64,000 nucleotides of DNA from a virus (Duplodnaviria; Heunggongvirae; Uroviricota; Caudoviricetes). The stretch is from IMG/VR virus record IMGVR_UViG_2799113095_000002. One strand, 5' to 3'. The translations under genes and the position numbers were made by a program. Shown piece after piece: positions 2,304-62,645 of the stretch. Under the pieces are notes generated by a model. It worked only from the letters and a program-made list of their open reading frames with translations. It made no database searches and was not told where the DNA came from. How positions within the stretch are numbered: the stretch's first letter is position 1; every line of letters starts with the position of its first letter.

Positions 2304-4124
2304 TCAAAAGATGGTCCCTTCGCCGAGGAAGTGGGACAGGGTTGTCCAAACGGCCTGCAACGCACGAAGACCCCGCGCTGCGGGGTCTTCTTTGTCGTTG
2401 TCGTCGCCGATCGCGAGGGACACAGTTACCGGGTCTTGGCGGGACCATGTCCGCTTTATCGCGGTGATCTGGTCCGTGAAGATGATTCCGTGCTGCTCGA
2501 ACCCGGCCCGGTCACCGAGCCCAACGTCTACGTCGATGGCGTGGGGTCGTCCATTGACCACCTTGACCGTGAAGCCTTGCCAGGCACGGGTTTTGTAGTG
2601 GCCTACGCGGAGCGTCACGACACCGGAGAGGGTGTAGGCGGTGCCGCCGCCCTTCTCGAAATGCTCCTGCCAGGCCATGTCACCGGCCCATAAAGCTCGA
2701 GTTGGATCGGTGAACCGCATCCACGCCAGCAACGTATTGTCCAGCTGGCCTTGGTACAGGTTGTCCAAGCCTTCTGTGCCTTGAGCTTGGCCGTAGAACG
2801 CGATGGTCTGGGCTAGTTGCGATAGCGCATATCGGATAGCAAACGTCTGGGCTTGGTTGACGATCGCAGGCGACCGCGAGCCCGTCATGATCGTCTTGAC
2901 CGGCCCCTTGTGCTGTCTTCGCTCGGACTCGATGATCCCGCTGAATTGGCCGTCGTACCAGATGGTCTTTGGCTTCTCCGGTGCGACGCCAAAGAGCTTG
3001 CGGAACAGAGGATCTGTCTCGCCGTCCTGGTTCTCGTCCAGGTTGATCAGCGTCTCCGTGATCATGTCGTCCAACGTGGCGCCGATGAGGTTGATGACGC
3101 CGTCTACGGCGGTGCCTGTCGGGCCGGTGACGCCGGACTTGTCCTCGATGGCGAAGACGATGCAGTTCCGGTGGGGGCGGGTGGCCTGGTCTACGAAGTC
3201 CTCGGCGACGGTTCCCCGGGCGATGTCCACGAGTTCGGTGTGCGGGGAGTCTTCGTCCTCTTCCAGCCATGTGTAGGCACGGAATCCGCAGCCCGCGTCC
3301 TTGAGCATGTCGTCCATTGCGGAGTGCCAGTCGGTCCACGCGGAGCCGATGACGGAGAGTCTGGATTGGTCAAGCAGCGGGTTGACGAACGCGACTTGCA
3401 GCGGCCACGACAGCGGATCCAGTCCGGTGAGTCCGCCGTTGAGCCATGAGAACGGGTTGAAGATGTTGGTCGGGATCGACAGCAGCGGGAAGAACAGTCG
3501 CGCCAGGTTGATGAACATGGAGGCGGAGAGGATGGTGCGGGTGTTGCCCGGAAGCACCCACATCTTGGGCAGCTGGACCTCGGGTGGGAAGATCGGATTC
3601 GCTGCGAACAGAAGGTTTTTCGCGTGCTGCCGGTTGCTGATGGCCTCCAGCTCAAGCGTGTGAATGCCGGAGCTGTCGCGCTTGGCGTTGATCCCGGTGA
3701 TCTTCCCGCCCCATCGGGTTCGCCATGTTGGCGCTGTCGGGTTGGGGTCCACGACCAGGTGGAGGTCTTCGTGGATCTTCGTCTGGTGGAGGATGAAGTC
3801 GGTCAGCCAGTTCTCGTACCGGAGAACAACATTGGCTTGGCCGGAGTCGGACCACATCTCCTCCACTGAGGCCATCCGCTCGCCCGCGATCTGGGCGACC
3901 GGCTTCATGTTCTTGTCGAACAGGCGGAGCATCGGGCGCTGCCGGGCGGAGGCCTCGATGATGTCGCGGCGGCCCTTTACGTACCGGAACTGCGACATGG
4001 GGTCGCTGGGGTCTGGCTTCTCCTTCTCAGCGATGACCCGTTTGAACTGGTCGTTCATCCAGCGGGTGAACTCCAGCGGCGCCGTTACCAGTCCGGTATC
4101 GACGCCGTCGAGGAGGCTGCTCAT
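2304..4124 (-). CDS. minor tail protein (606 aa)
   Basis: Long ORF with non-biased composition directly downstream of the post-TMP gene. Size and position match siphophage minor tail or tip proteins. Confidence 0.55.
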   Translation of the reverse strand: MSSLLDGVDTGLVTAPLEFTRWMNDQFKRVIAEKEKPDPSDPMSQFRYVKGRRDIIEASARQRPMLRLFDKNMKPVAQIAGERMASVEEMWSDSGQANVVLRYENWLTDFILHQTKIHEDLHLVVDPNPTAPTWRTRWGGKITGINAKRDSSGIHTLELEAISNRQHAKNLLFAANPIFPPEVQLPKMWVLPGNTRTILSASMFINLARLFFPLLSIPTNIFNPFSWLNGGLTGLDPLSWPLQVAFVNPLLDQSRLSVIGSAWTDWHSAMDDMLKDAGCGFRAYTWLEEDEDSPHTELVDIARGTVAEDFVDQATRPHRNCIVFAIEDKSGVTGPTGTAVDGVINLIGATLDDMITETLINLDENQDGETDPLFRKLFGVAPEKPKTIWYDGQFSGIIESERRQHKGPVKTIMTGSRSPAIVNQAQTFAIRYALSQLAQTIAFYGQAQGTEGLDNLYQGQLDNTLLAWMRFTDPTRALWAGDMAWQEHFEKGGGTAYTLSGVVTLRVGHYKTRAWQGFTVKVVNGRPHAIDVDVGLGDRAGFEQHGIIFTDQITAIKRTWSRQDPVTVSLAIGDDNDKEDPAARGLRALQAVWTTLSHFLGEGTIF

Positions 4125-11218: not shown

Positions 11219-11464
11219 TTACTTGCCCCTTATCTGGTTTACGGCCTTCATCAGGGTGGAGTTCTTGGCATCGTCAGCGCGGGCTTCTGCTGTTTCCGGC
11301 TCCACGAATGCCCTCGGGCGCTGCGTGTTCGAGCGCTTTTGCATCGTGACCTTGTATCCGGGACCGCACGCGTCGGCCAGCTCCTCGGCCTTCTTCTTCA
11401 CGTATTCCGCGTGGAGGTGCCGGATGCGCCGGTAGCCGCGCATGTTGTAGATGATCTTCGCCAT
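11219..11464 (-). CDS. head-tail connector region small protein
   Basis: ORF 11219..11545 trimmed to MAKIIYNMRGYRR right after the upstream stop at 11466. Confidence 0.35.
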   Translation of the reverse strand: MAKIIYNMRGYRRIRHLHAEYVKKKAEELADACGPGYKVTMQKRSNTQRPRAFVEPETAEARADDAKNSTLMKAVNQIRGK

Positions 11465-11465
11465 G

Positions 11466-11831
11466 TCAGCCAACCCGCCTGAGCTGGATCTCCCCGCCAA
11501 ACAGCTTGTTGTACTTGGCCCATGGCCCATTTCGCCAGTCACCATCTACGCCCGGCCCGACGACCTCGAACCGGCGGCCCGCGATATCTACTTCGTCCTG
11601 GTTGAAGTACTGCTCAGGCTTTCGCACGAGCATCGTCACCTCTGAGACGTACCGCGCCACGGTGTCGGCGGAGATCGGCTCTTGGGAGTACTTCCGGTAG
11701 AACGCGATTGCTTTCCGCATGACCGGGTCCTCGGATACCTCGCCGACCGCGTTGCCGTGGCTATCGACGGCTGCCGGTACCGCCGGGGTGAATGCGTAGT
11801 ACGGGATGCTGTGGGGTTCAGGGAAGATCAT
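11466..11831 (-). CDS. head-tail adaptor or tail completion protein
   Basis: 121-aa ORF; 4-nt overlap with the upstream gene. Confidence 0.4.
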   Translation of the reverse strand: MIFPEPHSIPYYAFTPAVPAAVDSHGNAVGEVSEDPVMRKAIAFYRKYSQEPISADTVARYVSEVTMLVRKPEQYFNQDEVDIAGRRFEVVGPGVDGDWRNGPWAKYNKLFGGEIQLRRVG

Positions 11832-12385
11832 CCGACGACCTGAATCCGATACCCAGCCAGCCGGTCTACTTGGTGGCTGGTGAGCGCGAGTCCAATCCCG
11901 GCGCCGAACTTGATTTGGAAAGGTCCGCCCTTGACCTCGCTCGCCGCCGACGCGGGCAATTCGATTGCCTTGGCGGCCAACTCCAGGATCACGGCCTTCA
12001 CGTCCATGGGTACGTCCTCATACCCGTGGGTGAATGTGACCTGTGCGGGCCGGTTGGCCGGGTACCCGTACACCGGCCAGTAGTAGCGGCGGGGCCACGT
12101 CACCGTGTTCCGGTTGATGAACCCCGCCGCGTCCCACTCGTATTCAGTTGTTTCGAGCTCCCGGTCCTCCACGATGACCTTTTCCACGTCGGTGACGTGA
12201 AGGGAGGGCAGCATGATGACGCCCATTTGGCCTACGGCGCAGCGGAGATCGACCACCCGCTCGGATGGCGCGATGTGCCATCCGCAGTACTTGCGAACAC
12301 CGGCCTCGGCGCAGCGGAGAAAGAACTCCGGGTCGCCGTCGTTGAACTTGTTGAGGTCGGCGAGTTCGACAAGGTTCCCGGCCAT
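11828..12385 (-). CDS. head-tail connector protein
   Basis: 185-aa ORF in the head-tail block, tightly coupled to its neighbours. Confidence 0.4.
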   Translation of the reverse strand: MAGNLVELADLNKFNDGDPEFFLRCAEAGVRKYCGWHIAPSERVVDLRCAVGQMGVIMLPSLHVTDVEKVIVEDRELETTEYEWDAAGFINRNTVTWPRRYYWPVYGYPANRPAQVTFTHGYEDVPMDVKAVILELAAKAIELPASAASEVKGGPFQIKFGAGIGLALTSHQVDRLAGYRIQVVG

Positions 12386-16550: not shown

Positions 16551-16717
16551 TGGCCATCGGCCTTCGGTGCGCGGTTGGGCGGGTCGATAGCAAGCCCGAT
16601 GAGAATCAGTGCGAGACCGCCCATTACGAGACCGATCCACGGCGCCAACACCCAGCCCCCGGCGACTAGCACCGCGACCCCGGCCAGCTCGAACCCGGCC
16701 GAAATGAGGGGGCGCAT
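16547..16717 (-). CDS. small membrane protein (two predicted TM helices)
   Basis: ORF 16547..16768 trimmed to M18, which overlaps the terminase stop. Hydrophobic stretch LAGVAVLVAGGWVLAPWIGLVMGGLALILIGLAI. Confidence 0.3.
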   Translation of the reverse strand: MRPLISAGFELAGVAVLVAGGWVLAPWIGLVMGGLALILIGLAIDPPNRAPKADGQ

Positions 16718-18315
16718 CAGTAGAGGTCTTCTTTCTGCCACTCCATGATTTCCTCCTCGGAAGGCCATTCGTGCACGTCAGGCACCTTTTCGGGTCCGGC
16801 GAGCCGGACTGATTCAGCCCATGCAGCCGCCGCGCAGGCGACGAGGGGGCTTGCGTCGATGGGACTGCCTTGCCGGTCGAAAACCCATGCGTCACCGAGC
16901 TTTTTGGCGACTGTCGCGACGGCAGCTGTATCTAGGGCGGGTTGCGAGCGGTGGCGGACAATTCGCTGTACTACCTGGTCGTAGAAGTCGCCGCAGCCCT
17001 TGGTGAGGTCGCCGCCGCCCCATTCCAGGACCGGGATACCGGCCTCGACCATGTCCTCGATGAACCCTGAGGCCGGAGCGCCGCGCGCCTGCACGGCGAC
17101 GGTCTGGAACTTTCCGGGGCGTGCCTTGAACCACGGAATGATCCAGTCGGTACCGCGCTCCGCTGCAACAACTTCCACGTGGAGTAGGTCGTCGGCTCGG
17201 CGGGCGGCGATTGCGACGTAGCCGCGTGATCGTTGCCAATTCACATCAACGGCAGCCCACACAGGCGCCCCCTCAGCTCGCCGCGACAGCTCATCCAAGG
17301 TGGCTTGCCAGTCTTCGGCGGGGATGATGCCGGGGGCTAGCGAATCAACCCACTGGCATAGGTGTTCAGTCTTAAACCCGGCGATGTCAGCGCGTTTCGC
17401 TTCGAGCTTCCCCGCGACGGACGCTTCGTCGTGCCCGTCAAGCCAGCCCATCGCCGGGTTCGCCATCGGCCAGACGGAACGGTCGTACGGGTCAGATTCA
17501 TCCGGCGCGGACCACTCGAACAACCCGAGCTGGGTCTCCTCGGTCTTACCGGCGATTATCGCCTGCAAGCAGCCGTCCCGGACCGACCGCAGCACGATGG
17601 ATTTCTTGTCCCCGGCGTTACTGGCGGTAACGGCTTGGCTGTACTTACGGGCGGTGGTGGTGGGGACAACCGCGTCCCAGGTCTCCCAATTGGTGTGCTC
17701 ACGAAGCTCATCGAGCATTGCGAGGTCAATTGAGAAGGAGCGTCCCGCTTTTCGGTTCTGGGCGACAGCCCGCCAGGACCGTTTCCCGGTTAGGAACATC
17801 GCGTGCTTGCCGTTGGCGGTACGGTGCCGGACAAACTCCAGCCGGAGCTTCGAGGATTCCTTCACGTCATCCACGACGGCGGAGAGCGTGCCCTCCGCGT
17901 ACTCCAGCCCTTGTGCCGCGATGACCACCGTCTTGGCGGCCGGGCACCCGGCAGTCGATATGCCCTTGCTGTCCAGGTACAGCCGCCAGAGGCCAAGCCC
18001 CTTAAGCCACTGGGTCTTCCCGTTCTGCCGCGCGATGAGGATGACGACTGTGCGGAGCCGGAACCCTGTACCGTCCGCGCCTTTCTCCAAAGCGTGGATA
18101 TACAGCCACTTTTGGTACGGCAGGAGCGTCCAGCCGAGGAAATTCTCCAGAAAACCGATGCACTCGAATCCCCAGGAGGTATCCGGGTTCAGACCACAGC
18201 CGCACTCGCAGGCATCCGGGCGGCTGGGGTCGCAGTGCGCGGTGAGGGGCGGCGTGTACAGGCGGGGTTTGGTGTACCCCTTAAGCGTTGGTGCGCTTAC
18301 GACGCCAGTCGTCAA
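16717..18315 (-). CDS. terminase large subunit
   Basis: 532-aa ORF with an ATPase-like N-terminal region (LIARQNGKT) and a nuclease-like C-terminus. Canonical position upstream of portal. Confidence 0.85.
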   Translation of the reverse strand: MTTGVVSAPTLKGYTKPRLYTPPLTAHCDPSRPDACECGCGLNPDTSWGFECIGFLENFLGWTLLPYQKWLYIHALEKGADGTGFRLRTVVILIARQNGKTQWLKGLGLWRLYLDSKGISTAGCPAAKTVVIAAQGLEYAEGTLSAVVDDVKESSKLRLEFVRHRTANGKHAMFLTGKRSWRAVAQNRKAGRSFSIDLAMLDELREHTNWETWDAVVPTTTARKYSQAVTASNAGDKKSIVLRSVRDGCLQAIIAGKTEETQLGLFEWSAPDESDPYDRSVWPMANPAMGWLDGHDEASVAGKLEAKRADIAGFKTEHLCQWVDSLAPGIIPAEDWQATLDELSRRAEGAPVWAAVDVNWQRSRGYVAIAARRADDLLHVEVVAAERGTDWIIPWFKARPGKFQTVAVQARGAPASGFIEDMVEAGIPVLEWGGGDLTKGCGDFYDQVVQRIVRHRSQPALDTAAVATVAKKLGDAWVFDRQGSPIDASPLVACAAAAWAESVRLAGPEKVPDVHEWPSEEEIMEWQKEDLY

Positions 18316-18715
18316 GGTCGCTCACCGGGGCTTCGTCGCCGTCGTCGCCCTCGTCGTCCGGGTCGGGCAGGTTCGGCGGCTCGTTCATCCCTGGCGTCGC
18401 GGCGTCCAGCCCGTAGAGCCGGGTCTGCTGTGCGAGGAGCCTCCGGCAGAACTCGGCTGCTTTCACGTCGCCGTTCAGCGCGTTGCCGAAATGGGCCCGA
18501 AACAGCGCCTCCGAGCGCTCCACGTGCATCGCCAACGCCTGATCCGCTAAGTAATCACGGCGTTTCGCCGCCTTGGCCATCTCCCGCTGAACGATCTTCT
18601 CGACGGCGGTGTGAGTGATGTTGTGCCGCTCACCGATCTGCCGGTACGGGACACCAGCGATGAACAGCTGGAGCACTTGCGCGTCGCGCTTGGCCCGGGT
18701 GATCCGGTCCGTCAC
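18281..18715 (-). CDS. terminase small subunit-like HTH DNA-binding protein
   Basis: ORF 18281..18856 trimmed to a GTG at 18715 (GTGA overlap). HTH PYRQIGERHNITHTAVEKIV. Acidic C-terminus. Directly upstream of TerL. Confidence 0.45.
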   Translation of the reverse strand: MTDRITRAKRDAQVLQLFIAGVPYRQIGERHNITHTAVEKIVQREMAKAAKRRDYLADQALAMHVERSEALFRAHFGNALNGDVKAAEFCRRLLAQQTRLYGLDAATPGMNEPPNLPDPDDEGDDGDEAPVSDLDDWRRKRTNA

Positions 18716-19569
18716 CGGCCCCCGGCCTTCGCGGAGCGGACGCCGGGTGGCGGCGTGGTCGGGGGGTGCCCGGCGTGCCGCTTCTTCGGGGCGAGGGTGA
18801 TCTCGATGTAGCCGGTGTCCTTCTTGCGGGTGTTCCTGCGCACCAGGCCCGGCCACTGCTTCTCCAGCTCCTCGACGCTGAAAGCGACCTTGGCGGGGGT
18901 TCTTTGGAACTCACCGGGCGCCTGGCAGCCGCCAGGGTCCGTGTAGTAGTTCGCTTGGGCGGCAATTCCGTCGTGCCGGACTGTGCCACCGTCGTACCAC
19001 CATGCGCGCAGGCTCGTTTCGTGCTCGTCCTTGTACGGGACGGTGAACTCGTGGACGGGATGGCCGGGCCGGTTGAAGAACCCGATCACGGTGAAGATCA
19101 GAAATCGGAGGCCTTCGCTGACGCGGCCCGGCGACATGTAGAAGGCATTGACGACCGGCGACAGACCCCACACGTACAGGTCCCGCCCAGCGGTCTCGGT
19201 GAACATCCGCCGGAACAGTGAATCCACATCAGCCACGGGGCGAAGGGTTTTCGAGTCCACTGCCTCCACCAGGCCCGTCACGTCGTCGTCCAGGCACACA
19301 ATCGGGGTACCAGGCGCGAACTGGGTGGGTATGTAGGTCCGCTGTGCCGTGATACCGCGCATCGGGGTGGCGTTGAGGCGGACACCCGTCCTGCCGGCCA
19401 CCTCCTGGTAGGCCTCCAGCTGCGGATCGTTGTCGTGGAGGAACACCGTGATCCGGGCCGGGTCCACTCCGGTCGCGTTCAGCCAGGCGAGCGTCTTCCG
19501 CTCCAGCCCTTCGGCGCGCTGGTAGGAGGGGATCACGATCTGGTACTCGCGGGCCGGGGCGCGCCTCAC
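18712..19569 (-). CDS. GT-A fold glycosyltransferase (DxD type)
   Basis: N-terminal YQIVIPSYQR resembles the GT2 VIPTYNR motif; a DxD-like IVCLDDDV follows. GTG start overlaps the oxygenase stop. Confidence 0.55.
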   Translation of the reverse strand: MRRAPAREYQIVIPSYQRAEGLERKTLAWLNATGVDPARITVFLHDNDPQLEAYQEVAGRTGVRLNATPMRGITAQRTYIPTQFAPGTPIVCLDDDVTGLVEAVDSKTLRPVADVDSLFRRMFTETAGRDLYVWGLSPVVNAFYMSPGRVSEGLRFLIFTVIGFFNRPGHPVHEFTVPYKDEHETSLRAWWYDGGTVRHDGIAAQANYYTDPGGCQAPGEFQRTPAKVAFSVEELEKQWPGLVRRNTRKKDTGYIEITLAPKKRHAGHPPTTPPPGVRSAKAGGR

Positions 19570-20405
19570 TAGGGCTGCCTCCGCTCAGCGATGAGCCGCG
19601 CCTGATTCTGCTCCCGAGCGGTGCGCGCCTTTTGGGCGTATTCAGTCTCCAATGCACCCTCCAAGCACGATTTCATGCCCTTGAGGGCGTAATAGACGAC
19701 GCTCAGCCGGTATCCGTCCGGCTTACGGAGCTGCATCGGGGTGACCCCATGCACCAGCTGATGACCCGGGAAGAAGACCGCGGTGCTGTCTCGGCACGGC
19801 AGCACCACCCCGTACTCGGGGATGTGCAGGTGCCCACCGTTCATGCCGCGCCGGAACACTGGCATCGCGCTCCAGGTTGGGAAGTTGAACCCGTCGCGGT
19901 GGTAGGGCAGCGTCGAGCTCCGGTTGATGACACCCGAAGTCCAGAGCTCGGAATCGCCCAGCTTCCAGGTAGATCCGACCTGGAGCATGGTTTCCCGGTC
20001 GCGGGCCTCGATTTTCGCGTCAATTTGGCGGAGCATCCTCGCCAGCGCCCCGGCCCACGCATCCAGCGCTGCCTCGGCTGCCGGGAACTCCTTGGCGACA
20101 CCGGACGCCCGGCACGCGTCGCGGCTGTAGCTTGGCCGCCGGGGCTGGTACCCGAAGTTGGCCGACAGGTTCTTCGCGCCCGACGCACGCCGCAGATCCG
20201 TGTACTTCAATGACAGGCAGGCCCGCCGCAGATCCGGCGCCTCCACCGGCAGCACCGCCATCACGGTCTCACCGGTATCGGCGTCTGTAGCGATGAATGG
20301 CTCGCTGTGGGTCGGCTCGTGCTCCCCGACCCGCGTACCGACGAGGGTTGTCGCCTCCTCCGGGCTCACCACCCGCCGTAAACTCAGCCGCTCCACCGGT
20401 GTCAC
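19569..20405 (-). CDS. 2-oxoglutarate/Fe(II)-dependent dioxygenase
   Basis: HxD (PYHRDGF), distal His (LVHGVTP) and RxS (YRLSVV) 14 residues later form the classical 2OG-oxygenase triad plus 2OG-binding Arg. GTG start at 20405 overlaps the ParB-like stop (GTGA). Confidence 0.6.
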   Translation of the reverse strand: MTPVERLSLRRVVSPEEATTLVGTRVGEHEPTHSEPFIATDADTGETVMAVLPVEAPDLRRACLSLKYTDLRRASGAKNLSANFGYQPRRPSYSRDACRASGVAKEFPAAEAALDAWAGALARMLRQIDAKIEARDRETMLQVGSTWKLGDSELWTSGVINRSSTLPYHRDGFNFPTWSAMPVFRRGMNGGHLHIPEYGVVLPCRDSTAVFFPGHQLVHGVTPMQLRKPDGYRLSVVYYALKGMKSCLEGALETEYAQKARTAREQNQARLIAERRQP

Positions 20406-21097
20406 TCCGCGACCGCTGGCGCTGCGTCCAGCGCGGTCTCTTCCTGCTTGAGCAGGTGCACCAACACGGATGCGTTGCTCTCCAGTGCGTGAGCGTCCGC
20501 CACCCGCTGCAACGTCTCGACCACCCACAGGTACTCGTCGCCGACGAACGTCATCACGACCATCCGCTGGTCGGACTGGTCATAGTTGGTCTTCAAGTCC
20601 TCCAGGGACGTTGCGGTGCCCTGGTTTCCGGCCAACTCGTCCTCCGGCACCGGTTCCAGCTCCTCCAGGGCCGCCGCCAGGTCATCGAGATCGTCTTGCA
20701 CGTAACCGGTGCCATCCAGGGTGTCCAGGGACTCCAGGATTTCCAGCAACGCCTCGTTGTCGTACCCACCCAAGGCTGGGATCTTGTTGTCAGCAACGAC
20801 AATCGCCTTGGCCTGCTGCTCATCCACGTCCACCAGCCAGCAGTCGATATCTGCCCAGCCGAGTTCCCGCGCCGCGAGCAAGGTGTGGTTACCGGCCAAC
20901 ACCTCGTTGGGGCGCCCGGTGTGCGTCCCACGGTTCACCACGATGGGCCGGTACTGGCCATTGGCGGTAAGCGAGGCCGCGATATCCGGGACCGAACCTC
21001 TACGCGGGTTGCCCTTGAAGGTTTTTAGCTGGGACACGGGTAGCCGCGCAGCCGAATTAACTGCGGTACCTGCGGTGTTAACTGTGGGGTCAGTCAT
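20402..21097 (-). CDS. ParB-like nuclease domain (ParB/Srx fold) protein
   Basis: N-terminal KGNPRRGSVPDIAASLTANGQYRPIVVNRGTHTGRPNEVLAGNHTLLAARELGW matches the ParB N-terminal domain pattern. Acidic C-terminal half. Confidence 0.6.
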   Translation of the reverse strand: MTDPTVNTAGTAVNSAARLPVSQLKTFKGNPRRGSVPDIAASLTANGQYRPIVVNRGTHTGRPNEVLAGNHTLLAARELGWADIDCWLVDVDEQQAKAIVVADNKIPALGGYDNEALLEILESLDTLDGTGYVQDDLDDLAAALEELEPVPEDELAGNQGTATSLEDLKTNYDQSDQRMVVMTFVGDEYLWVVETLQRVADAHALESNASVLVHLLKQEETALDAAPAVAE

Positions 21098-21441
21098 GCG
21101 GGCGCGCTCCTAGCTGGTAGCTGCTGGCTAACTTCTTGGCAACATTTTTCGAGGGGGGGCGGAACCCTTGCCGGTCCGAGGGACCTTGGGTTCGGCGGGC
21201 AACTTTTCACCCCGCCCCCGGGTATCTGCGGTGGCCGTGTGGTCCGTTGGGGCCTGGTGACGAGGGGTTCGTCTCTGGGTCGGGGTCGTTCGGGTGTGTG
21301 CTCGTACAGCGATGGTGGTGGGGTGGGCCCGCAGCGGTGTTGGCGCGGTTGGCTAACTCGCCTCGTTCCCCGAGGTTGGGAGGGGTGTTAGCCAACGGTG
21401 TCCGGGTGTTAGCTGGGTGTGGGGCGTTGTTAGCTGGCGGG
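21098..21441. repeat. 344-bp intergenic region with clustered short repeats (TTAGCTGG x3; inverted GTTGGCTAAC / GTTAGCCAAC); candidate parS-like or packaging (cos/pac) site
   Basis: Motif copies at about 21104, 21125, 21349, 21387, 21408 and 21428. It is the only large non-coding gap in the packaging region. Confidence 0.5.
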
Positions 21442-22170
21442 TTACCAGGTTTCGGACGGTTGGCCGATGGCGATGTTGGGTTCGGCGTCGCCTCGGCGGA
21501 TGTTGCAGTTCAGGTGGCTGGGTCGGAAGTTCCTGGGGTCCAGCGCGAGCTCGGGGGCCTCGGATACCGGGATGGCGTGGTCCACGGAGAAACTGTCCGG
21601 GTGGGGTGCTTTGAGGCTGTAGTCGATGGGGCGCTGGTCCAGCCAGCACACGTCGCCGCGCTCCTCGCACTCCTTACGGAAGGTGGCCTTGAGTTCTTGG
21701 TAGTGGCGGCCGCGTGGGCGTCCTTGTGCGTCGAGGCCGGGCACATGCTGGGCGGGGGTGCTGCCGGTGGTGGGGTGTTCCTCGTACCAGCGTTTGATGG
21801 CGCCCTGTAGCTGCCATGGCCGTTCGGCGCGTGCGCGTTCCATGACGGTGTCTTGGCCGGGGTCGATGGTGATGACCTCAGCGCCGTACGAGCGGTACTT
21901 CGTGAGCATCGCGGTGCTCGGGGTGGAGTGGATCAGGAACACGTCGTGCTCACCGACGAGGGTGAGGGCGGTGTCGATGGCTGCCTGTCGGGCCGCCTTG
22001 GTGACTGCCTTCACGTGGTCGGGGTGGTCGTGGCGGTGGGGGCTGTCGTCTTGTGGGGTGAGGGTGCAGGCGAGGGCGTCGTAGTCGATGGTGATGTCAC
22101 CGGGCCGCGAGTTGTCCCGCACCCATGTGGACTTGCCTGCTGCCGGCGGACCAACCACCACGAACAGCAC
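21442..22170 (-). CDS. P-loop nucleotide/polynucleotide kinase-like domain fused to an HNH nuclease domain
   Basis: ORF 21442..22314 trimmed to a GTG at 22170 (TAGTG overlap). Walker A VVVGPPAAGKSTW at the N-terminus. C-terminal VDHAIPVSE...PSHLNCN resembles the HNH motif. Confidence 0.55.
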   Translation of the reverse strand: MLFVVVGPPAAGKSTWVRDNSRPGDITIDYDALACTLTPQDDSPHRHDHPDHVKAVTKAARQAAIDTALTLVGEHDVFLIHSTPSTAMLTKYRSYGAEVITIDPGQDTVMERARAERPWQLQGAIKRWYEEHPTTGSTPAQHVPGLDAQGRPRGRHYQELKATFRKECEERGDVCWLDQRPIDYSLKAPHPDSFSVDHAIPVSEAPELALDPRNFRPSHLNCNIRRGDAEPNIAIGQPSETW

Positions 22171-22394
22171 TAGACCGCCACCAGGTGGCCGCACTCCAGG
22201 CAGCGGGGTGTACCGCAGTAACCGGTGATGCGCATGCGATCGTCGGCTGCCAGCACCACGGCGCCGTGGGCGGGTGCGCCCGGTCCGGCCAGGGTGCCGT
22301 CCAGGCGGAACCATTCGCTACCGCATTTGACGCACTGGTGGTTGGTGGTCGGTGGGGTGCGGTGCTCGCCGAGTTGGATGACGTTGTCTGCCAT
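22170..22394 (-). CDS. small zinc-ribbon protein
   Basis: MADNVIQLGEHRT...CVKCGSEW...CGTPRCLECGH carries two CxxC pairs. ORF 22170..22466 trimmed to M25. Confidence 0.4.
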   Translation of the reverse strand: MADNVIQLGEHRTPPTTNHQCVKCGSEWFRLDGTLAGPGAPAHGAVVLAADDRMRITGYCGTPRCLECGHLVAV

Positions 22395-23390: not shown

Positions 23391-23773
23391 GCTGACGCCG
23401 CCACGTACACACGCCCTATGACGCGCGGCAGCACCTCGACGGGGATGTCCTCACTGCCGGCCACCACGAACGCGTCCGCGTTGCCCCGGTAGTAGCCGCC
23501 GGTACGCGCCGACATGAAGTGGGCGGTGCCTCCCCACACGTGGTGCACGCGCATATCGCCGACGCTGGTACGGGTGGACTCGATTTCAGGCTGGGCGAGG
23601 TGTCCATCCTCGATGAGGGACCGCATCGCGGATAGCGCTTCCTCGTGGCGCTGGGCAAGGTAGATCACCCGGCGCTGGTGACGGAGCTCGGCAGCGACCA
23701 ACTCGAGTACGGCGTATCGCGCAGCCTTGGGATCGGGTGCGTCGATGGTTATGACGCCGGTTGGGGCGGTCAT
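23387..23773 (-). CDS. hypothetical protein
   Basis: 128-aa ORF; 4-nt overlap with its neighbours. Confidence 0.4.
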   Translation of the reverse strand: MTAPTGVITIDAPDPKAARYAVLELVAAELRHQRRVIYLAQRHEEALSAMRSLIEDGHLAQPEIESTRTSVGDMRVHHVWGGTAHFMSARTGGYYRGNADAFVVAGSEDIPVEVLPRVIGRVYVAASA

Positions 23774-24108
23774 GCGGATGGCCCTGCTGCAGTGTTGATC
23801 GAGCCCGAATCATCAATCAGTTCAGCCTCGGTGGCAGGGATGAAGCCGATGACCCCGGATCTGACTGTGCCAACCGGCTGGGGGGCGGTCTTCGCGATGG
23901 AGGCGTTGGACCACATCAGGGCCTCCTCCAGCTTCGTCAACGCGAGGGACTTCTCTCGACCGGGCGGCAGCACCTCATCAAGGCAGTGGGCGATGTGGGC
24001 GCATTGCCCCCGGACGTAGTCGAGCGTGACCACCCGGTCCTCGCCGGAAAGGTGGTAGTTGAAGCGTTGGTCGATGTCTGCACGGCTGCTTGGGGTGGCG
24101 TGACTCAT
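23770..24108 (-). CDS. hypothetical protein
   Basis: ORF 23770..24384 trimmed to MSHATPSSRADIDQ, which has an AGGAGA RBS 8 nt upstream. Confidence 0.4.
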   Translation of the reverse strand: MSHATPSSRADIDQRFNYHLSGEDRVVTLDYVRGQCAHIAHCLDEVLPPGREKSLALTKLEEALMWSNASIAKTAPQPVGTVRSGVIGFIPATEAELIDDSGSINTAAGPSA

Positions 24109-24179
24109 GCTGGGTTCTCCTGTGCTGCTGGGTGTGGGCTGGGTTTCGTCGCTGGGGAGCCAGAGTCGGCGAGTGAGGG

Positions 24180-24680
24180 TCAGACCGGGTTCGGCGCCGG
24201 GTTGTTCTGGAACCACTGCTCGTACTGGGTCTGGGTGAGGAACGGGTAGCGCTGCACCGTGGTCAGATTCACCTCGGTACCGGCGGTCACGGGCGCGATG
24301 ATCGCGAAGTTCCGCCAGGTACGGTCCCCCCGGTTGAACACCACGTTCGAGAAGCTGATGTCGATGAAGAGGTCTGCCGGCCACGCGAGGAGCGCGGTGT
24401 TGGCGAACAGCTTCATCCCGAGAGTGCCGTTGGGGTGGCGGAGGCGGCCTTCATCGAGGCGCCCCTCAAACGTGTCGAGGGCGAAGTCCGTTGGGCGGGG
24501 GTCGTAGTTCGCGGCCCGGAACGCCCAGCCCTGCGGGAGCCGGTACCGGAACAGGACCGTGGCCGTGATGGGGCGGATGTCGGGCTCGTTATCCAGGTCG
24601 GTGTTGCGGTCTGCGACGCCCGCCCACGTGTCGTACATGACCGTGAACGACTGCGGGACAGCGAGACCCGGACCGGTCAC
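24180..24680 (-). CDS. hypothetical protein
   Basis: 166-aa ORF with normal composition. Confidence 0.45.
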   Translation of the reverse strand: MTGPGLAVPQSFTVMYDTWAGVADRNTDLDNEPDIRPITATVLFRYRLPQGWAFRAANYDPRPTDFALDTFEGRLDEGRLRHPNGTLGMKLFANTALLAWPADLFIDISFSNVVFNRGDRTWRNFAIIAPVTAGTEVNLTTVQRYPFLTQTQYEQWFQNNPAPNPV

Positions 24681-31848: not shown

Positions 31849-33549
31849 TTACAGGTCACCTCGGGCGAAGTCCGAGATGAGCTGCGGTACAGCGCTATCG
31901 AACCCGGACACGTCGAGCTGGCGCGGGTCCGAAGGATCTGCGATGGTCTGCCGACCGCCGGTCATCGCGACCACCATCAGGCTGGTGTCCAGGCTGAGCT
32001 TGTTCCGGTACTCGGTGAGAGCCTGGTGCGGGTGGATACCCCCGTACCAGGTCTCGTTGTCGGTGAGGATCACGATGGCGTCGTAGGGGCGAAGCTGCGC
32101 CTTCGCCCAGATCATGGGGAGCGCGCAGTCGGTAGCGCCCATAGGGAGGCCTGCGGTGTATCGGCACACGTCATCGAGGCGGCGGCGCGGCGTGATGTCC
32201 AACTCCGTGATCCCTGATGAGCGGAAGCTCCCACCGGCCCCGGCGGTGAACCCGATGATGTCGTGGTTGGGCTCCACGTTGGCGGTCACCAGTGCGAGCG
32301 CGGCGGCGGCCTCGCGGCACGTCAGCGGCATACCGGAGATCGCGGCGCTCATGGAGCCGGAGATGTCCAGTGCCAGCAGGGTCCGCTTACCCGAGGGCTC
32401 GACGGCGCCGTAGGCGTTGTAGAACGCGGCGTCGAGCGCGTCAACGATGCGGCGGTTCGGAGTCCAGGTGGACTCACCGCGCGCAGAACGCCCAGAGGCA
32501 TAGGTGCGCTGTGCGACAAGGACATTGATCGGGTGGACGCGGCCCTTTCGTAGCCGGTCTGTGTCCTGGAGCTGCGCGGAGACCCGGCTGCCGAGCTGAC
32601 CGTTCAGCACGCCGAGGCGGGTTAGGCGGGGCAGCTGCCGCATGAGGGCGGTCTGCGGGAGGCCGTGCTCGATCAGCGCCTCCCAGATCGCAGGCTCGGT
32701 GAGGGCCTTGTCGGGGAACGCCTCCCACGGTAGGCCGTTGCCCCGGCGGATGATCGCCAGCCACTCGTTGACGGTGGTGGCACGCTGCGCGGCTTCGTAG
32801 TCCGCGATGATGGCAAGCGGGTGCCCGTCAGCCAGTTCCACATTGGGCAGCTTCGGTAGAGCGGGGTTGCGCTCTCCGGCCTTGAGCTGCTCCGGAGTGA
32901 GGAGCGGCTGCTTCCAGTTGTAGTCGTTGAGCCCCTTGCCGACAGCCCAGTTGAACGCCATGCGGCGTGCGGGGTCGCTGGTGGCGGGGCCGCTGAGCCG
33001 GAGCATGTCGCGGTGGGTCCAGCCGTCACGCTGCCGGTACTTGACCAGCTGGTAGGCGAGCCGGTCCACGGGCTTGTCCAGGTACCAGCTGGAGACGGCG
33101 CGCTTCATCGCCGGTCCCCAGCCCCGGAACTGCTCCATGTACTTGGTGAACAGGTACAGGTGGGTGGCGGTGCGCGCGACTCGGGGCAGTGCGGCGGCGG
33201 CGGCACGGCGGCCTTCCACGTTCTCGGAGGCCGAAGCGATAGCGAGCGCGAACAGGGCCGGGTTCTGCTTGGGGGCGCGTCCGGCCTCGGAGACCTCAAC
33301 GATCTTCTGCACGAGGGTGACGGGATCGGTTGCGGCGAGCCGGATCACGACATCGGCGGCGTCGCGGGTGAGGTCCTCGGCGGAGGTGTAGTAGGTGCCG
33401 CCGGTCGTGCCGAGGGTCAGGAATCGGTGGAGCCGGGTCCAGTCGTCGGCCTGGAAGGTGTAGCCCCCGGCGGCGTTCTTGACCTGGCGCGGGTCCGCCT
33501 TCTGGGCCTGAGGGGTGCGCCGCGTGCTGATCGAGGATAGAACGTCCAC
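31849..33549 (-). CDS. rsr: Ro60/Rsr-like ribonucleoprotein (TROVE domain plus C-terminal vWA domain with MIDAS DxSxS)
   Basis: 566 aa. GTG start with an AGGAG RBS 6 nt upstream. vWA MIDAS LLALDISGSMS...T...D. Size and domain order match bacterial Rsr. A Y-RNA-like array lies immediately upstream. Confidence 0.75.
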   Translation of the reverse strand: MDVLSSISTRRTPQAQKADPRQVKNAAGGYTFQADDWTRLHRFLTLGTTGGTYYTSAEDLTRDAADVVIRLAATDPVTLVQKIVEVSEAGRAPKQNPALFALAIASASENVEGRRAAAAALPRVARTATHLYLFTKYMEQFRGWGPAMKRAVSSWYLDKPVDRLAYQLVKYRQRDGWTHRDMLRLSGPATSDPARRMAFNWAVGKGLNDYNWKQPLLTPEQLKAGERNPALPKLPNVELADGHPLAIIADYEAAQRATTVNEWLAIIRRGNGLPWEAFPDKALTEPAIWEALIEHGLPQTALMRQLPRLTRLGVLNGQLGSRVSAQLQDTDRLRKGRVHPINVLVAQRTYASGRSARGESTWTPNRRIVDALDAAFYNAYGAVEPSGKRTLLALDISGSMSAAISGMPLTCREAAAALALVTANVEPNHDIIGFTAGAGGSFRSSGITELDITPRRRLDDVCRYTAGLPMGATDCALPMIWAKAQLRPYDAIVILTDNETWYGGIHPHQALTEYRNKLSLDTSLMVVAMTGGRQTIADPSDPRQLDVSGFDSAVPQLISDFARGDL

Positions 33550-34472: not shown

Positions 34473-35222
34473 TCAGTGAGGTACTTCGTCTAGGCCGTTC
34501 TCGCGGAGGGTCGCGGTGACCGCCTCCACGACGCGCGTAGCGGGCCAGTCGTCGGGCGCGGAGATCAGGGTGCCCCCGGCCAGCTCGGTCTTTGTGAGAA
34601 GGTCAACGAGATGGTCAATCTCGCCGACTTCCTTGCTGATCCAGGTGCGGTATCCGGCACCGATCTTCCAATTGTTGCGCCGAGCAAGGCGCATTGCCGC
34701 AAGATCAGTGAGGGTGAAAGTGGCGGGCTGCCAGGTTGAAGCCACAGCGGCGCACACCTTGTCGCCAACCTCGCTAGAGACGCCGCCCGGCGCGGTCTCG
34801 GTCAGGTCGATGTGGAGGTTGTGCGCCGGCAGTCTCCCGCCGAGACCGATAGACCCCGCACCGATGAAGACCTTGGCAGTGATGGCAGGACCGACGCCCT
34901 TCAGGACGATCGAGTACCCCTCCCTGGGGAGAGCATCGCCGCTGGCGCCGTCAGGGAGTGCTTCGCGCACCGGGCAGCTCCGAACGATGTCGGCCAATGC
35001 CTCGCTGGGCCCAGCCCAAGTCTCCCAGTGGTGCCCCTTCGGGATGTCCCACTGCGCGATTCCCAGATCCGTTCCTAGCTGCGTCAGCAGCGCATCGGTG
35101 CGCGCCGCGATCCATTCGGGTGATTCGCCGGTCGCGACCCAGAACGCGTTCACGAACGACTCTCTCGCCCAGACGGGAGACGCGTTGGTTGGCCCGTTCA
35201 CAGCATCGAATTCTACGGTCAT
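34473..35222 (-). CDS. putative immunity protein of the polymorphic toxin system
   Basis: 249-aa ORF whose ATG overlaps the toxin stop (ATGA). Assigned by the toxin/immunity gene-order convention only. Confidence 0.45.
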   Translation of the reverse strand: MTVEFDAVNGPTNASPVWARESFVNAFWVATGESPEWIAARTDALLTQLGTDLGIAQWDIPKGHHWETWAGPSEALADIVRSCPVREALPDGASGDALPREGYSIVLKGVGPAITAKVFIGAGSIGLGGRLPAHNLHIDLTETAPGGVSSEVGDKVCAAVASTWQPATFTLTDLAAMRLARRNNWKIGAGYRTWISKEVGEIDHLVDLLTKTELAGGTLISAPDDWPATRVVEAVTATLRENGLDEVPH

Positions 35223-37102
35223 GGCTTCTCCGGGGTGTAGATCACGTCAACGTCGAGACCGCGGCCCTCTAGCAGATTCCGAATTATCGCTGCGCTCTGT
35301 GGGTTAGCGACGTGCCACTCAAGGCCAGTCTCAGGGGGCAGGACGCGTATCTGTCGCTGAGCCTCTCTGACGAGCTCGTTCTGGATGTTCTCAGTCCACG
35401 GCGCATCTGGACTCTTGATCAGGGGCGTGTAGTTGTGCTTTGCGTCTAGGAACACCTGCTGATTGCCCCGTTCGATGGGTCCGCTGTCGAATCTGACCAC
35501 CTCGCCGGTCTCGGGGTTGGTCATGACGTACTCGGGGATGCGTCCGTCAGGTGTTCGTTCGATACCCGTGATCTGCTCCTGGAAGCCCATCCAGGGCTTG
35601 TCGGGACCACGGTTGACATGCTCCCAACCTGGCGTGGGGTCACCCTTGGTCCAGGTTGCCTCTGGGGTGTGGGGCGGCCACCCACCCGGATGGTGCGGAT
35701 CGCCCGACGTGTAGTGCTGCCCCACGCTGGGGTCGAACTGATCGGGTGTCGGTAGTTGGTGCTGGGTTGGGGGTGGGGAGTGGTCGGCGACCGTGGGCGG
35801 TGGATGGTCTACAACCGGCGCGGGGTGGGTTGCGTCACTCGGGTCTGCGGTGTGCGCTGCGGGTGCTGGTGTGTCATGGAGTGCGCCGGGGCTCGGAAGG
35901 TCCGGGTGCGCGCCCAGGCGTGCAGCGGCGGCTTCTTCGAGTCCAGCGCGTGGCAACAGGCCTTCGGGACCGCCTGCCATTAGCGCCCCGCCATCGACCA
36001 GTTTTTCCCCGAAGTATTGGCCGGGGTTTTCGATGTTGTGCTTGATGCCTTCGGCGATATCGGCGCCCGGCGGGGTGGTCATGTGGTGCTTAAAGGACTC
36101 CCATTCTCGCCTACCGGCCTCTTCATTGGCCTCCCAAAAACCCTTGTCCCCCAACCCAAGACGGTCCCGCAGATCCGTGAACGGCGCAACCAACTTATCG
36201 ACGCCCTTGTCAATGCCCTCGGAAATATCCGTCTTGAAACGCTCGGCAGCCGATGGTTTGTGCTCCTCCGGTGGCTTGTCGTTGCGATTCAGGTAGGTGA
36301 CGCTTTCGCCCAGGCCACCCACCTTGGTCTTGTCGATAGTGTCCTTAGCGAACGGGCCGTACTGCGGGGCATTCGGATCGGCAGCAGCGGTGGCAGCGGT
36401 CGGGGTTGTCGCGGGATTCTTGATGTGCTCCAGCTTGTCGCCGAGCGTCCCGGCACCAGGATCGATGGAGGCCGGATCGGTGGCCTTGGGGTACCAGTCC
36501 TTGTAGAAGTTCGCGGGCTGGGCGCTCGGGTCGCCGGGCTTCGGGGTCGCGGCGTCGCGCAGGGCCTTGCGCCCGTCCACAAGCGCCGTTTTGGGGTTGA
36601 TGCAGCCGGTGATCGTTTGGGCGGTGGCGTCGGCCTGGGTTTTGAGGGTTTGACAGCCCTTCTCCCACTTGGCGACATACTCTTCGATCTGCCGTTGGAT
36701 GTCGGCGACGTGGGCGCGGTTTCGGGCTATCGAGTCATCGCTTTCACCCTCGGCGGGGTGGTAGTCCATCTTGTAGTCCTGAGCGATGGAGACGCCCTGG
36801 TCCTTGTGCGCCAGCACGCTCTCGATGAGGCGTTGGCCGTTGACCAGGGGATCGACCACCTCGTATTGGATGGTGGCGGCAACGAGTTTTCCGCCGTCTT
36901 CGGCGGTGTCGTGGGTGTTATCCGAGCCGTGGCAATCAGTGGATGCAGTGTCATAGGCGGCGTTCGAGGTGCGCCCGGTCCATTCGGTGCCATCGGGAGC
37001 CCCGACCCACCGTTTGTATTCGTCGTAGATTTCCTTGAACTGCCGGGTCTGTGGAAGCCAGGTATCCACCACCGCCATATAGTCATTGGCCTTCTTGGCC
37101 AT
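35219..37102 (-). CDS. polymorphic toxin: N-terminal WXG100-type (T7SS/ESX) secretion domain, long Pro/Thr/His-rich linker, C-terminal PD-(D/E)xK nuclease-like toxin domain
   Basis: ORF 35219..37231 trimmed to MAKKANDYMAVVDTWLPQ (or the GTG 21 nt upstream, which has an AGGGGG RBS). WxG motif KRWVGAPDGTEWTG. C-terminal EYVMTNPETGEVVRFDSGPIERGNQQVFLDAKHNY carries D...D-A-K. Confidence 0.6.
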   Translation of the reverse strand: MAKKANDYMAVVDTWLPQTRQFKEIYDEYKRWVGAPDGTEWTGRTSNAAYDTASTDCHGSDNTHDTAEDGGKLVAATIQYEVVDPLVNGQRLIESVLAHKDQGVSIAQDYKMDYHPAEGESDDSIARNRAHVADIQRQIEEYVAKWEKGCQTLKTQADATAQTITGCINPKTALVDGRKALRDAATPKPGDPSAQPANFYKDWYPKATDPASIDPGAGTLGDKLEHIKNPATTPTAATAAADPNAPQYGPFAKDTIDKTKVGGLGESVTYLNRNDKPPEEHKPSAAERFKTDISEGIDKGVDKLVAPFTDLRDRLGLGDKGFWEANEEAGRREWESFKHHMTTPPGADIAEGIKHNIENPGQYFGEKLVDGGALMAGGPEGLLPRAGLEEAAAARLGAHPDLPSPGALHDTPAPAAHTADPSDATHPAPVVDHPPPTVADHSPPPTQHQLPTPDQFDPSVGQHYTSGDPHHPGGWPPHTPEATWTKGDPTPGWEHVNRGPDKPWMGFQEQITGIERTPDGRIPEYVMTNPETGEVVRFDSGPIERGNQQVFLDAKHNYTPLIKSPDAPWTENIQNELVREAQRQIRVLPPETGLEWHVANPQSAAIIRNLLEGRGLDVDVIYTPEKP

Positions 37103-37136
37103 GAACTCATCCAGTGGCGTCACCACGCGCGTGCCC

Positions 37137-37457
37137 CTATGCCCGCTTCGGTGGCTGATAGATGCTGGGCAGATTGCCGTACCCGGCCGCCAGTGAACTC
37201 TCCGTGATCTTGAAAGCTTGCTGGGCCTCATCAGCGAAATCAGCGATCGTATTCAACCGCGCTGCCCCGATCCGCTTCACATCCGCGATGGCCTTGGACA
37301 CTCCATACAGCGCCGCCAAACCTGGATCAGCACCAGCCGGTGGCGAGACACTGGCCGCCGTGCTCTGCGTCAGCTGACCGGCGAGCGTCCTCAGATGCGG
37401 ACCGAGCTTCCCCAAGGCCGCAAGATCAAACTTGAGAACGTTCTCATCGCCCGACAT
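37137..37457 (-). CDS. small helical protein upstream of the toxin (possible secretion partner or chaperone)
   Basis: ORF 37137..37496 trimmed to MSGDENVLKFDLAALGKL, which has a GAAGGGGG RBS. About 106 aa. 35 nt upstream of the toxin start. Confidence 0.4.
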   Translation of the reverse strand: MSGDENVLKFDLAALGKLGPHLRTLAGQLTQSTAASVSPPAGADPGLAALYGVSKAIADVKRIGAARLNTIADFADEAQQAFKITESSLAAGYGNLPSIYQPPKRA

Positions 37458-62336: not shown

Positions 62337-62645
62337 ATGAGCGCTATGAGTACGTTGTATTCGGTTCCGAACGAGACCCTGTCCCAGACGGTGGCCCGCC
62401 GAATCCGGGGGCTGCTCGGGGAGAAGCGCATCTCTCAGGCCAAGTTCGCCAAGATGCTGGAGACGAACACCGCGAGCATGTCGCGGCGGCTCTCAGGCGA
62501 GTACCCCATCGACCTGGCTGAGGTTGAAAAGTATGCAGCCGCACTGGGGGTGTCCCCAATGCGGCTGTTGACTGGTCGGCCTGACGGCAGTGGCCCCGAT
62601 GGACCGGATGTGCGCCCGAAGGGATTCGAACCCCTAACCTTCTGA
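62337..62645 (+). CDS. XRE-family HTH immunity repressor whose 3-prime end is fused to host tRNA-Arg sequence (integration-truncated form)
   Basis: HTH TLSQTVARRIRGLLGEKRISQAKFAKMLETNTASMSRRL. The last 11 codons (RPKGFEPLTF, stop) are encoded by the 3-prime half of the tRNA-Arg gene on the opposite strand. Confidence 0.7.
   Translation: MSAMSTLYSVPNETLSQTVARRIRGLLGEKRISQAKFAKMLETNTASMSRRLSGEYPIDLAEVEKYAAALGVSPMRLLTGRPDGSGPDGPDVRPKGFEPLTF

Follow-up and report, generated by a model that had tools for sequence, protein, structure and literature searches.

A candidate cos region with putative terminase-recognition boxes in a Cluster Y-related prophage of Mycobacteroides abscessus

In phage lambda (cosQ-cosN-cosB), in SPP1 (pacL/pacC/pacR) and at the pac site of P1, a cleavage core is flanked by short repeats that are recognised by the small terminase subunit, and in SPP1 and P1 such recognition repeats lie on both sides of the cut. 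When lambda is compared with phage 21 (cosB/Nu1), the specificity repeats vary together with the small subunit and the cut site is kept. Lambda cosB also uses IHF, and at P1 pac Dam methylation of the hexamer repeats gates cleavage. Among phages with an HNH-assisted cos, HK97 has a small terminase subunit, TerS, with a binding site at +15..+29 relative to the cut for which an A-tract is required, and its HNH protein gp74 stimulates cos cleavage (PMC11331095). For the element described here, the nearest large terminase (TerL) among phage isolates is that of the Cluster Y mycobacteriophages Bipper, Cracklewink, Typha, Hilltopfarm, and Nadezda, with about 65% identity. In Cluster Y, the last gene codes for an HNH endonuclease and gene 1 for a ParB-like protein, which is followed by a 7-deazaguanine cassette and by the genes for a TerS-like protein, TerL, and portal. 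No statement on the cohesive-end type or the overhang length of Cluster Y was found in the literature or in the record features.

The window, i.e., the whole stretch of 64,000 nucleotides that was analysed, contains a similar arrangement of genes, all of which are on the minus strand around a gap without recognisable genes:

21442..22314, minus strand: fusion of a P-loop kinase (AAA_33/PNK-like) with an HNH endonuclease (Pfam domains AAA_33, residues 50-112, and HNH, residues 240-276)
21098-21441: gap of 344 bp between the kinase-HNH fusion gene and the ParB-like gene
20402..21097, minus strand: ParB-like protein, consisting of ParB N-domain, linker, and two-helix C-terminal domain
19569..20396, minus strand: TET/JBP-family dioxygenase (5mYOX), 46% identical to Tonitrus gp3
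18712..19569, minus strand: TET-associated glycosyltransferase (TAGT; PF20691 with a score of 30.2 bits, the cut-off being 27.5)
18281..18715, minus strand: TerS-like protein of 144 aa, directly upstream of TerL, overlapping both TAGT and TerL
16717..18315, minus strand: large terminase TerL, 65% identical to Cluster Y TerL

The order is therefore HNH, gap, ParB-like, modification cassette, TerS-like, TerL, portal, S78 protease, and HK97-type capsid, the head genes being assigned to PF04860 (portal), PF04586 (protease), and PF05065 (capsid). TerL is 71% identical to the TerL of prophiGD43A-5 and of prophiT37-1, and an identical copy of the 144-aa TerS-like protein is encoded in Mycobacteroides abscessus subsp. 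massiliense. Since the identical genes reside on chromosomal contigs of up to 1.06 Mb, the element is an integrated prophage of M. abscessus, of the HK97-like kind and with relatives among the Cluster Y mycobacteriophages. The kinase-HNH gene, which PHROG assigns to an HNH family, is the last gene before the putative cos region; in other assemblies a later start is called for it, resulting in proteins of 239-242 aa. The earlier note on this DNA had described the gene by its HNH part only, and the kinase fusion was absent from it.

The gap is bordered by the ATG of the ParB_N-like ORF (21097..20402, minus strand) and by the stop codon of the AAA_33+HNH ORF (22314..21442, minus strand), which confirms that a non-coding stretch of 344 bp separates the two genes, as had been proposed from the sequence. 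It had also been called the only sizeable gap of the packaging region, and indeed no other intergenic gap of comparable size exists between the HNH and the portal genes. Two small ORFs inside the gap (21395..21207 on the minus strand and 21239..21391 on the plus strand) were rejected as coding regions because 1-nt indels occur inside them in close relatives. The GC content of the gap is 66.6%. A DNA similarity search with the gap against phage records produced no match, and only part of the kinase gene matched phage records at the DNA level (81%); a search of the gap against Rfam gave only a chance miRNA-like match with an E value of 0.4. With its location between an HNH gene and the first terminase and head genes, the gap occupies the place expected for an HNH-assisted, HK97-like cos.

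Within this gap, five copies of the hexamer GTTAGC (here called boxes A to E), an inverted repeat, a core of 67 nt, and an A-tract can be distinguished. In the following list, positions with a sign are counted from the predicted genome end, which is marked by a slash:

21426..21437, minus strand: box A, gene-direction sequence CCAGCTAACAAC, GTTAGC on the plus strand at 21429-21434, position -265
21405..21416, minus strand: box B, gene-direction sequence CCAGCTAACACC, GTTAGC on the plus strand at 21408-21413, position -244
21384..21395, minus strand: box C, gene-direction sequence TTGGCTAACACC, GTTAGC on the plus strand at 21387-21392, position -223
21349..21360, minus strand: box D, gene-direction sequence CGAGTTAGCCAA, GTTAGC on the minus strand at 21357..21352, position -188
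21348..21396: boxes C and D paired as an inverted repeat, with 17-nt arms that are 88% complementary and a 15-nt spacer
21153..21219, minus strand: 67-nt putative cos core, from GGGGGCGGGG to CCCCCCC
21168..21169, minus strand: predicted end of the virion top strand, 21169/21168, ...CGGACCGGCA / AGGGTTCCGCCCCCCC, from the alignment with Cluster Y
21145..21150, minus strand: GAAAAA tract, position +19..+24, in surroundings of 66% GC
21124..21135, minus strand: box E, gene-direction sequence GAAGTTAGCCAG, GTTAGC on the minus strand at 21132..21127, position +37
21025..21032, plus strand: third copy of TTAGCTGG, in the ParB-like coding sequence and outside the gap coordinates

GTTAGC thus starts at 21127 (minus), 21352 (minus), 21387 (plus), 21408 (plus), and 21429 (plus), and the unit common to the repeats of the gap is GTTAGC(Y)(R)(R), a 9-mer (GTTAGCYRR) of which no copy exists elsewhere in the 64-kb window. 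The three copies on the plus strand are spaced by exactly 21 bp, from A to B as well as from B to C, a distance that corresponds to two helical turns. Box A begins 4 bp past the HNH stop codon. Read in the direction of transcription, the boxes at -265, -244, and -223 appear as GCTAAC and those at -188 and +37 as GTTAGC, so that box D is oriented opposite to boxes A-C and box E is oriented as box D, being followed by degenerate copies at 21111-21125. The inverted repeat of boxes C and D, box C being its left arm, has an inner stem CCTCG/CGAGG.

The repeats listed in the earlier note are present. The inverted pair GTTGGCTAAC (21348-21357) and GTTAGCCAAC (21387-21396) is present as part of the repeat with 17-nt arms, and the further motif CTGGCTAAC is found at 21124-21132. 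Of the three TTAGCTGG copies attributed to the gap, two are situated there (21409 and 21430) and the third lies inside the ParB-like gene, a point that had not been made before; three copies of TTAGCTGG in the window compare with an expectation of 0.73.

Of the 11 copies of GTTAGC in the 64-kb window, five are concentrated in 308 bp (21127-21434), although this contrast between the gap and the rest of the window is in part due to coding bias, because TTA and TAG are avoided in genes of high GC content. When the dinucleotide composition of the gap itself is taken as a basis, 0.14 copies are expected against the five observed (Poisson 4e-7), and in a control that considered any hexamer, 5 of 2000 simulated gaps equalled the over-representation seen. 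Conservation singles out the same positions. In close relatives retrieved from IMG/VR and Logan, with ParB proteins that are 93-100% identical, the gap is 87-98% identical to that of the window (seven distinct related sequences). Among these seven relatives, none of the 30 hexamer positions varies, whereas 77% of the other gap positions are invariant (Fisher p = 5e-4), and box A is invariant over its whole length (12/12 positions). The 67-nt core has 88% invariant positions, and the least conserved part of the gap is the 126-bp spacer at 21220-21345, with 71%. One relative (L031) carries an extra ORF of 101 aa between the HNH gene and the array, so that the gene upstream of the array is a different one, and its homology with the window resumes at box A; therefore the first box marks the start of the element, which moves together with the downstream side.

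Cluster Y phages are the closest phages in the collection with records that start at a conserved position outside a gene. In Cracklewink, Bipper, and Typha, 382-403 bp separate the HNH gene from the right record end and 201-234 bp separate the left record end from the ParB-like gene, and the terminal bases ...CCGCCCGGTA / RGGGTC, which are not a gene start, are common to these three phages from two genera. The records of Tonitrus and CloverMinnie start at gene 1, which is the convention for records of permuted genomes. Because of this difference between shared breakpoints outside genes and a start at gene 1, the natural reading is that the Cluster Y record ends would represent physical ends, and we infer the genome end of the window from them. 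An nhmmer profile made from the three joined Cluster Y record ends was used to scan both strands of the 64-kb window (a search space of 128 kb). Its top match is at 21219..21144 on the minus strand; taken alone, an E value of 0.26 makes it a weak match, yet its position is in the syntenic gap of 344 bp and its orientation is the correct one. Alignment with MAFFT joins the 67-nt core, which the earlier note had not described between the boxes, to the junction of right and left Cluster Y record ends without a gap, the window reading GGGGGCGGGG...CGGACCGGCA / AGGGTTCCGCCCCCCC and Bipper GGGGGGTGGG...GCCGCCCGGTA / AGGGTCTTACCCCCCC. On the basis of this alignment, the virion top strand is predicted to end between 21169 and 21168.

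With a profile combining these sequences, the core is also recovered a short distance upstream of the ParB homologue in prophiGD43A-5 (E 4e-5) and of that in the IMG/VR contig L039 (E 1.5e-3). In prophiGD43A-5, an M. abscessus prophage, the ParB gene appears to have been annotated too long, and the 5' end of this annotation encloses the core. Only the analyses by profile and core are informative in this respect, since the pairwise alignment of the whole gap with the Cracklewink junction did not score above shuffles. Nested inverted repeats are contained in the core, and their symmetry centres disagree (about -9 vs about -18); folded as a single strand, the core is no better than its shuffles (z = -0.02). 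A second tract, GAAAAG, occurs at about -40, and the tract downstream of the predicted end is kept in Cluster Y as GAAAAG at +20. Assembled contigs were searched for ends at the predicted cut, and none was found; additional matches of the pattern scan were unrelated hairpins.

The arrangement of boxes around the core also has its counterpart. In Cluster Y, a box GACCTGG is repeated at -195, -151, -108, and -64, i.e., with a phasing of 43-44 bp, and inverted copies are present at -27 and +37, the latter (CCTGGTC) matching the position of box E exactly. Box D (-188), too, has an equivalent by position in Cluster Y, a single GAGTTAGCTGG at -177/-178. Taken together, the layouts in the window and in Cluster Y consist of a conserved cut core and lineage-specific phased boxes on both sides of it. 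Of the two roles that the earlier note had offered for the repeats, recognition by a small terminase subunit around a cos site is thus the one that gains ground: Cluster Y record ends are situated between the same genes, their junction finds its best match of the window in this gap, the boxes follow the same layout, and a TerS-like gene precedes TerL. The gap probably holds cos, a prediction made from sequence comparison, and we are inclined to favour the explanation as a whole, i.e., a cos region with terminase-recognition boxes in an integrated M. abscessus prophage, with somewhat less confidence. That the boxes themselves are TerS sites is given an even chance.

Among the explanations that compete with terminase recognition, control of the late operon is an unlikely one. 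Boxes would serve as operator or activator sites and the inverted repeat as terminator hairpin for the late operon starting with the ParB-like gene, cos being located elsewhere or consisting of the core only. A long co-directional operon does begin after the gap, boxes C and D form an inverted repeat capable of a hairpin right past the HNH gene, and the TerS-like protein has an HTH of the LuxR/sigma-r4 type. However, consensus scans of both strands between 20900 and 21700, which capture mycobacterial promoters poorly, detected neither a sigma-70-like promoter nor an intrinsic terminator, and the RNA fold of the hairpin is unexceptional, with a z-score of only -1.6. Furthermore, the layout around the end-homologous core, including the copy at +37, is mirrored in phages that have their record ends there.

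If the boxes are recognised by the terminase, the TerS-like HTH protein of 144 aa is most likely the protein that binds them and is our preferred candidate. Its predicted structure begins with an N-terminal HTH, continues with a long hairpin of helices and a stretch that is acidic and disordered, and closes with a C-terminal helix, and the modelled combination of HTH, helical hairpin, and acidic tail is the general plan of a small terminase. The HTH of the model superposes on DNA-binding domains of the NarL/GerE type at 1.1-1.2 A, and a weak HTH_23/LuxR-type match is found in the sequence; comparison with TerS families and structures gave no significant match. In PHROG, the family of this protein carries the label 'RNase E'. 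The predicted recognition helix reads THTAVEK in the window vs SVGMADK in Cluster Y, and the TerS-like proteins of L039 and prophiGD43A-5 have other sequences again. Both the TerS-like protein and the C-terminal half of the ParB-like protein change between lineages and are the same within each lineage; since the ParB half differs as well, this covariation gives no decision between TerS and ParB as the protein that binds the boxes.

The boxes might also be bound by a factor that the host supplies or that is conserved in the phages (for example a protein associated with the nucleoid, a bending protein, TerL, or the HNH protein), and would then be accessory, architectural cos sites and not specificity sites of TerS. 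This possibility has its basis in an element (A)GTTAGCTG, which occurs once in Cluster Y (at -177/-178) and once in L039, where a single AGTTAGCTG follows the HNH stop; as the element is found in both despite their differing TerS recognition helices, a conserved or host factor could bind it. The use of IHF at lambda cosB provides a precedent. In contrast, five phased copies in the window and a separate multi-copy box in Cluster Y fit lineage-specific recognition, and we know of no mycobacterial factor that has been linked to GTTAGC. We think that this reading, too, has little chance of being correct.

As the boxes adjoin a gene with a ParB_N fold, the ParB-like protein deserves consideration, and the earlier note had suggested a centromere-like site bound by it. 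Boxes would in that case be parS-like sites, either of a centromere or for the loading of a spreading ParB clamp. The ParB C-terminal half and the boxes both differ between the lineage of the window and Cluster Y, and ParB-like proteins are encoded by gene 1 in many actinobacteriophages. The model of the ParB-like protein (pLDDT 84) contains an N-domain of the ParB/Noc/KorB type, short helices, a linker of low confidence, and a C-terminal domain of two helices. An HTH could not be made out: Pfam finds only ParB_N, none is recognisable in the model, residues 134-174 form only three short helices with low confidence at 150-180, and the low-rmsd matches obtained with Foldseek cover about 135-145 residues. 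The protein thus probably has no such domain, although it may have a cryptic DNA-binding surface. Partition by ParB and parS is known from extrachromosomal replicons with a partner ParA, a ParB that carries an HTH between its N-domain and its dimerisation domain, and palindromic parS-type sites of about 16 bp, whereas the boxes are short (6-9 bp), non-palindromic, and of mixed orientation, no ParA gene adjoins the ParB-like gene (its neighbours are TET/JBP and TAGT), and the element is chromosomally integrated. Moreover, Tonitrus and CloverMinnie keep the ParB-TET pair and lack the upstream repeat array. These observations do not support the centromere proposal, and ParB-binding sites of either kind appear a shade less likely than the two preceding alternatives.

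What the ParB-like protein does instead is suggested by its neighbourhood. According to a 2026 paper, ParB homologues encoded beside phage TET/JBP enzymes activate thymine oxidation on dsDNA, and members of this class, which are devoid of an obvious DNA-binding domain, have this activating effect on phage T-dioxygenases throughout the genome in E. coli, where DNA sites of the phage are absent (PMC13229309). In the window, the ParB-like gene is likewise located directly upstream of a TET/JBP gene, with a glycosyltransferase gene following as hypermodification gene downstream, and the protein is predicted to have the same N-domain, linker, and C-terminal domain without a recognisable DNA-binding domain; this comparison with the 5mYOX-associated ParB activators, whose genes adjoin TET/JBP genes of the clade-C1 type, is by gene order and model and concerns the flanking gene only, not the repeats. 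The dioxygenase itself has a weak Pfam Tet_JBP match, and its homologue in the Rhodococcus phage Tonitrus is labelled 'Tet-like J-binding protein'. A C5-methyltransferase was not found among the genes adjacent to the ParB-like and TET genes. Because Tonitrus keeps ParB and TET without the array, the ParB-like gene is best read as part of the modification cassette, and because its product fits a class without obvious DNA-binding domain, a centromere role is unlikely. The probable function of the ParB-like protein is activation of the dioxygenase encoded next to it, not binding of the boxes.

By analogy with the gating of P1 pac by methylation, one might imagine that modification of the thymines of the boxes (GTTAGC/GCTAAC) by the ParB-activated dioxygenase and TAGT gates binding of the terminase or cleavage at cos, an idea that we regard as a long shot. 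In line with it, Cluster Y has a guanine-modifying cassette in the same position and a G-rich box, GACCTGG. Finally, the 21-bp phasing of the three direct repeats, together with the inverted copy and the A/T tracts close by, could recall the iterons of a replication origin. This is the least probable explanation, as the region is part of the late/packaging module between HNH and terminase genes and homologous to the Cluster Y genome-end junction, no initiator or helicase gene is adjacent, and DNA of 66.6% GC offers no AT-rich unwinding element.

Returning to the reading as a cos region with terminase-recognition boxes, the following course of events can be proposed. Boxes would dock the DNA-recognition subunit of the phage, most likely the 144-aa TerS-like HTH protein, which would bind the phased boxes as well as the A-tract/+37 site and recruit TerL. 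Phased binding on one face of the helix and on both sides of the cut would promote assembly of the terminase on the concatemer, and TerL together with the HNH endonuclease would nick the core near 21169/21168. Packaging would then run toward the ParB-like gene and finish at the next cos, and the ParB-like gene would adjoin cos only because the modification cassette occupies the left end of the genome. A counter-point to such a scheme is that all boxes except box E are on the upstream side of the cut, which would be packaged last, whereas lambda cosB and the TerS site of HK97 are found downstream.

These predictions provide a testable position for the genome end (21169/21168) and candidate boxes for prophages of a family widespread in M. 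abscessus, a pathogen against which phages are being engineered for therapy. Once the cos region is defined, engineered DNA could be packaged and correct linear maps of these prophages could be drawn. Besides, an annotation that suggests itself is corrected: gene 1 of many actinobacteriophages, coding for a ParB-like protein, is better read as belonging to a DNA-modification cassette than as coding for a partition or packaging protein.

In comparison with known systems, Cluster Y is the closest. It shares with the window the gene order around the site, proteins with identities of 65% (TerL), 55% (TerS-like), and 59-69% (ParB N-domain), a core of the same length of 67 nt with a common G-run, CCGGYA/RGGGTY, C7 run, and GAAAA, and a phased array of boxes upstream combined with an inverted box at +37. 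It differs in the box and its phasing (GACCTGG with 43-44 bp there, GTTAGC with 21 bp in the window), in the size of the gap (about 600 bp vs 344 bp), and in the cassette after the ParB-like gene, which consists of 7-deazaguanine genes in Cluster Y and of TET and TAGT in the window; in addition, the element of the window is an integrated prophage in M. abscessus. With lambda, SPP1, and P1 there is no sequence relationship, and the similarity is one of design: the predicted core is likewise flanked by several short repeats, most of them being placed in the window on the side that would be packaged last. If the boxes are indeed recognised by the TerS-like protein, a conserved cut core with swapped boxes would mean that the modular logic of lambda and phage 21 is now encountered in an actinobacteriophage lineage. 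HK97 resembles the window in that an HNH gene is located beside cos and the terminase genes in the circular map, that portal, protease, and capsid belong to HK97-type families, and that an A-tract is situated about 20 bp downstream of the cut (predicted in the window, and to be compared with the TerS site at +15..+29 in HK97; PMC11331095). In contrast, HK97 has a single TerS site of 15 bp and lacks a repeat array, comparison of the TerS-like protein of the window with HK97 TerS showed no sequence similarity, and HNH is fused to a P-loop kinase in the window. A cos region with small-subunit repeats is thus a known kind of site, and what is new is the prophage family, which has not been described at this level.

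Next to the probable cos site at 21098-21441, the window carries a DNA-modification cassette and a fused endonuclease, and other genes of the integrated prophage lie further away. All of these features are on the minus strand:

18712-21097, minus, cassette of ParB-like protein, TET/JBP dioxygenase and TAGT glycosyltransferase, placed between cos and the terminase genes
21442-22314, minus, fusion of an HNH endonuclease with a polynucleotide-kinase-like P-loop domain (AAA_33), adjoining cos
23770-24384, minus, ORF with Acb2/Tad1 hairpin domain (E 4e-16)
31849-33549, minus, prophage-encoded Ro60-like protein with TROVE and Ro60 vWA domains
35219-37231, minus, 670-aa protein with a Tox-REase-5 domain at its C-terminus
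62610-62820, minus, pair of neighbouring tRNA genes, tRNA-Arg(acg) and tRNA-Ser(gct), close to the window's right edge

The homologue of the kinase-HNH fusion in the M. abscessus prophage prophiGD43A-5 (11560-12312) is annotated only as 'polynucleotide kinase' and ends in an HNH-type HRDCNLKRG motif. In the same prophage the cos-like core lies within the annotated 5' end (5' part, 11389-11519) of gene 79, a 532-aa 'ParB-like nuclease domain protein'. Similarity to ParB sets in about 180 nt downstream of the annotated start, which seems to be placed too far upstream. Two PHROG labels also look wrong, i.e., 'RNase E' for phrog_645, to which the TerS-like HTH protein (18281-18715) is assigned, and 'queuine tRNA-ribosyltransferase' for phrog_6059, to which the TET/JBP protein (19569-20396) is assigned. 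The former label has been carried over into Cluster Y annotations.

In one relative (L031), box A is separated from the HNH gene by an extra 101-aa ORF (3363-3668), which is inserted at the point where the repeat array starts on its upstream side. A contig of 75,812 bp from JGI metagenome 3300083030, approximately one phage genome in length, encodes an identical ParB gene far from its ends and may be a complete copy of the window phage opened at an arbitrary point. Outside the gap, five of six GTTAGC copies are located within 56.8-63.8 kb of the window. The tRNA pair possibly marks the prophage attachment site.

The Acb2/Tad1 fold is that of anti-CBASS and anti-Thoeris nucleotide sponges. A Ro60-like protein is likewise encoded by prophiGD43A-5. 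Polymorphic toxins of prophages are known from M. abscessus (PMC8092301), and the Tox-REase-5 protein is probably one of them.

In Cluster Y mycobacteriophages (Bipper, Cracklewink and Typha; left and right record ends compared), GACCTGG occurs four times upstream of the right end at intervals of 43-44 bp, with inverted copies at -27 and +37 from the end. These boxes are apparently undescribed in the literature open to search. The cassette of the window predicts thymine hypermodification (base-J-like) in an M. abscessus prophage genome. In Cluster Y phages the slot held here by TET/JBP and TAGT is occupied by a 7-deazaguanine cassette, which also lies behind a ParB-like gene homologous to that of the window.
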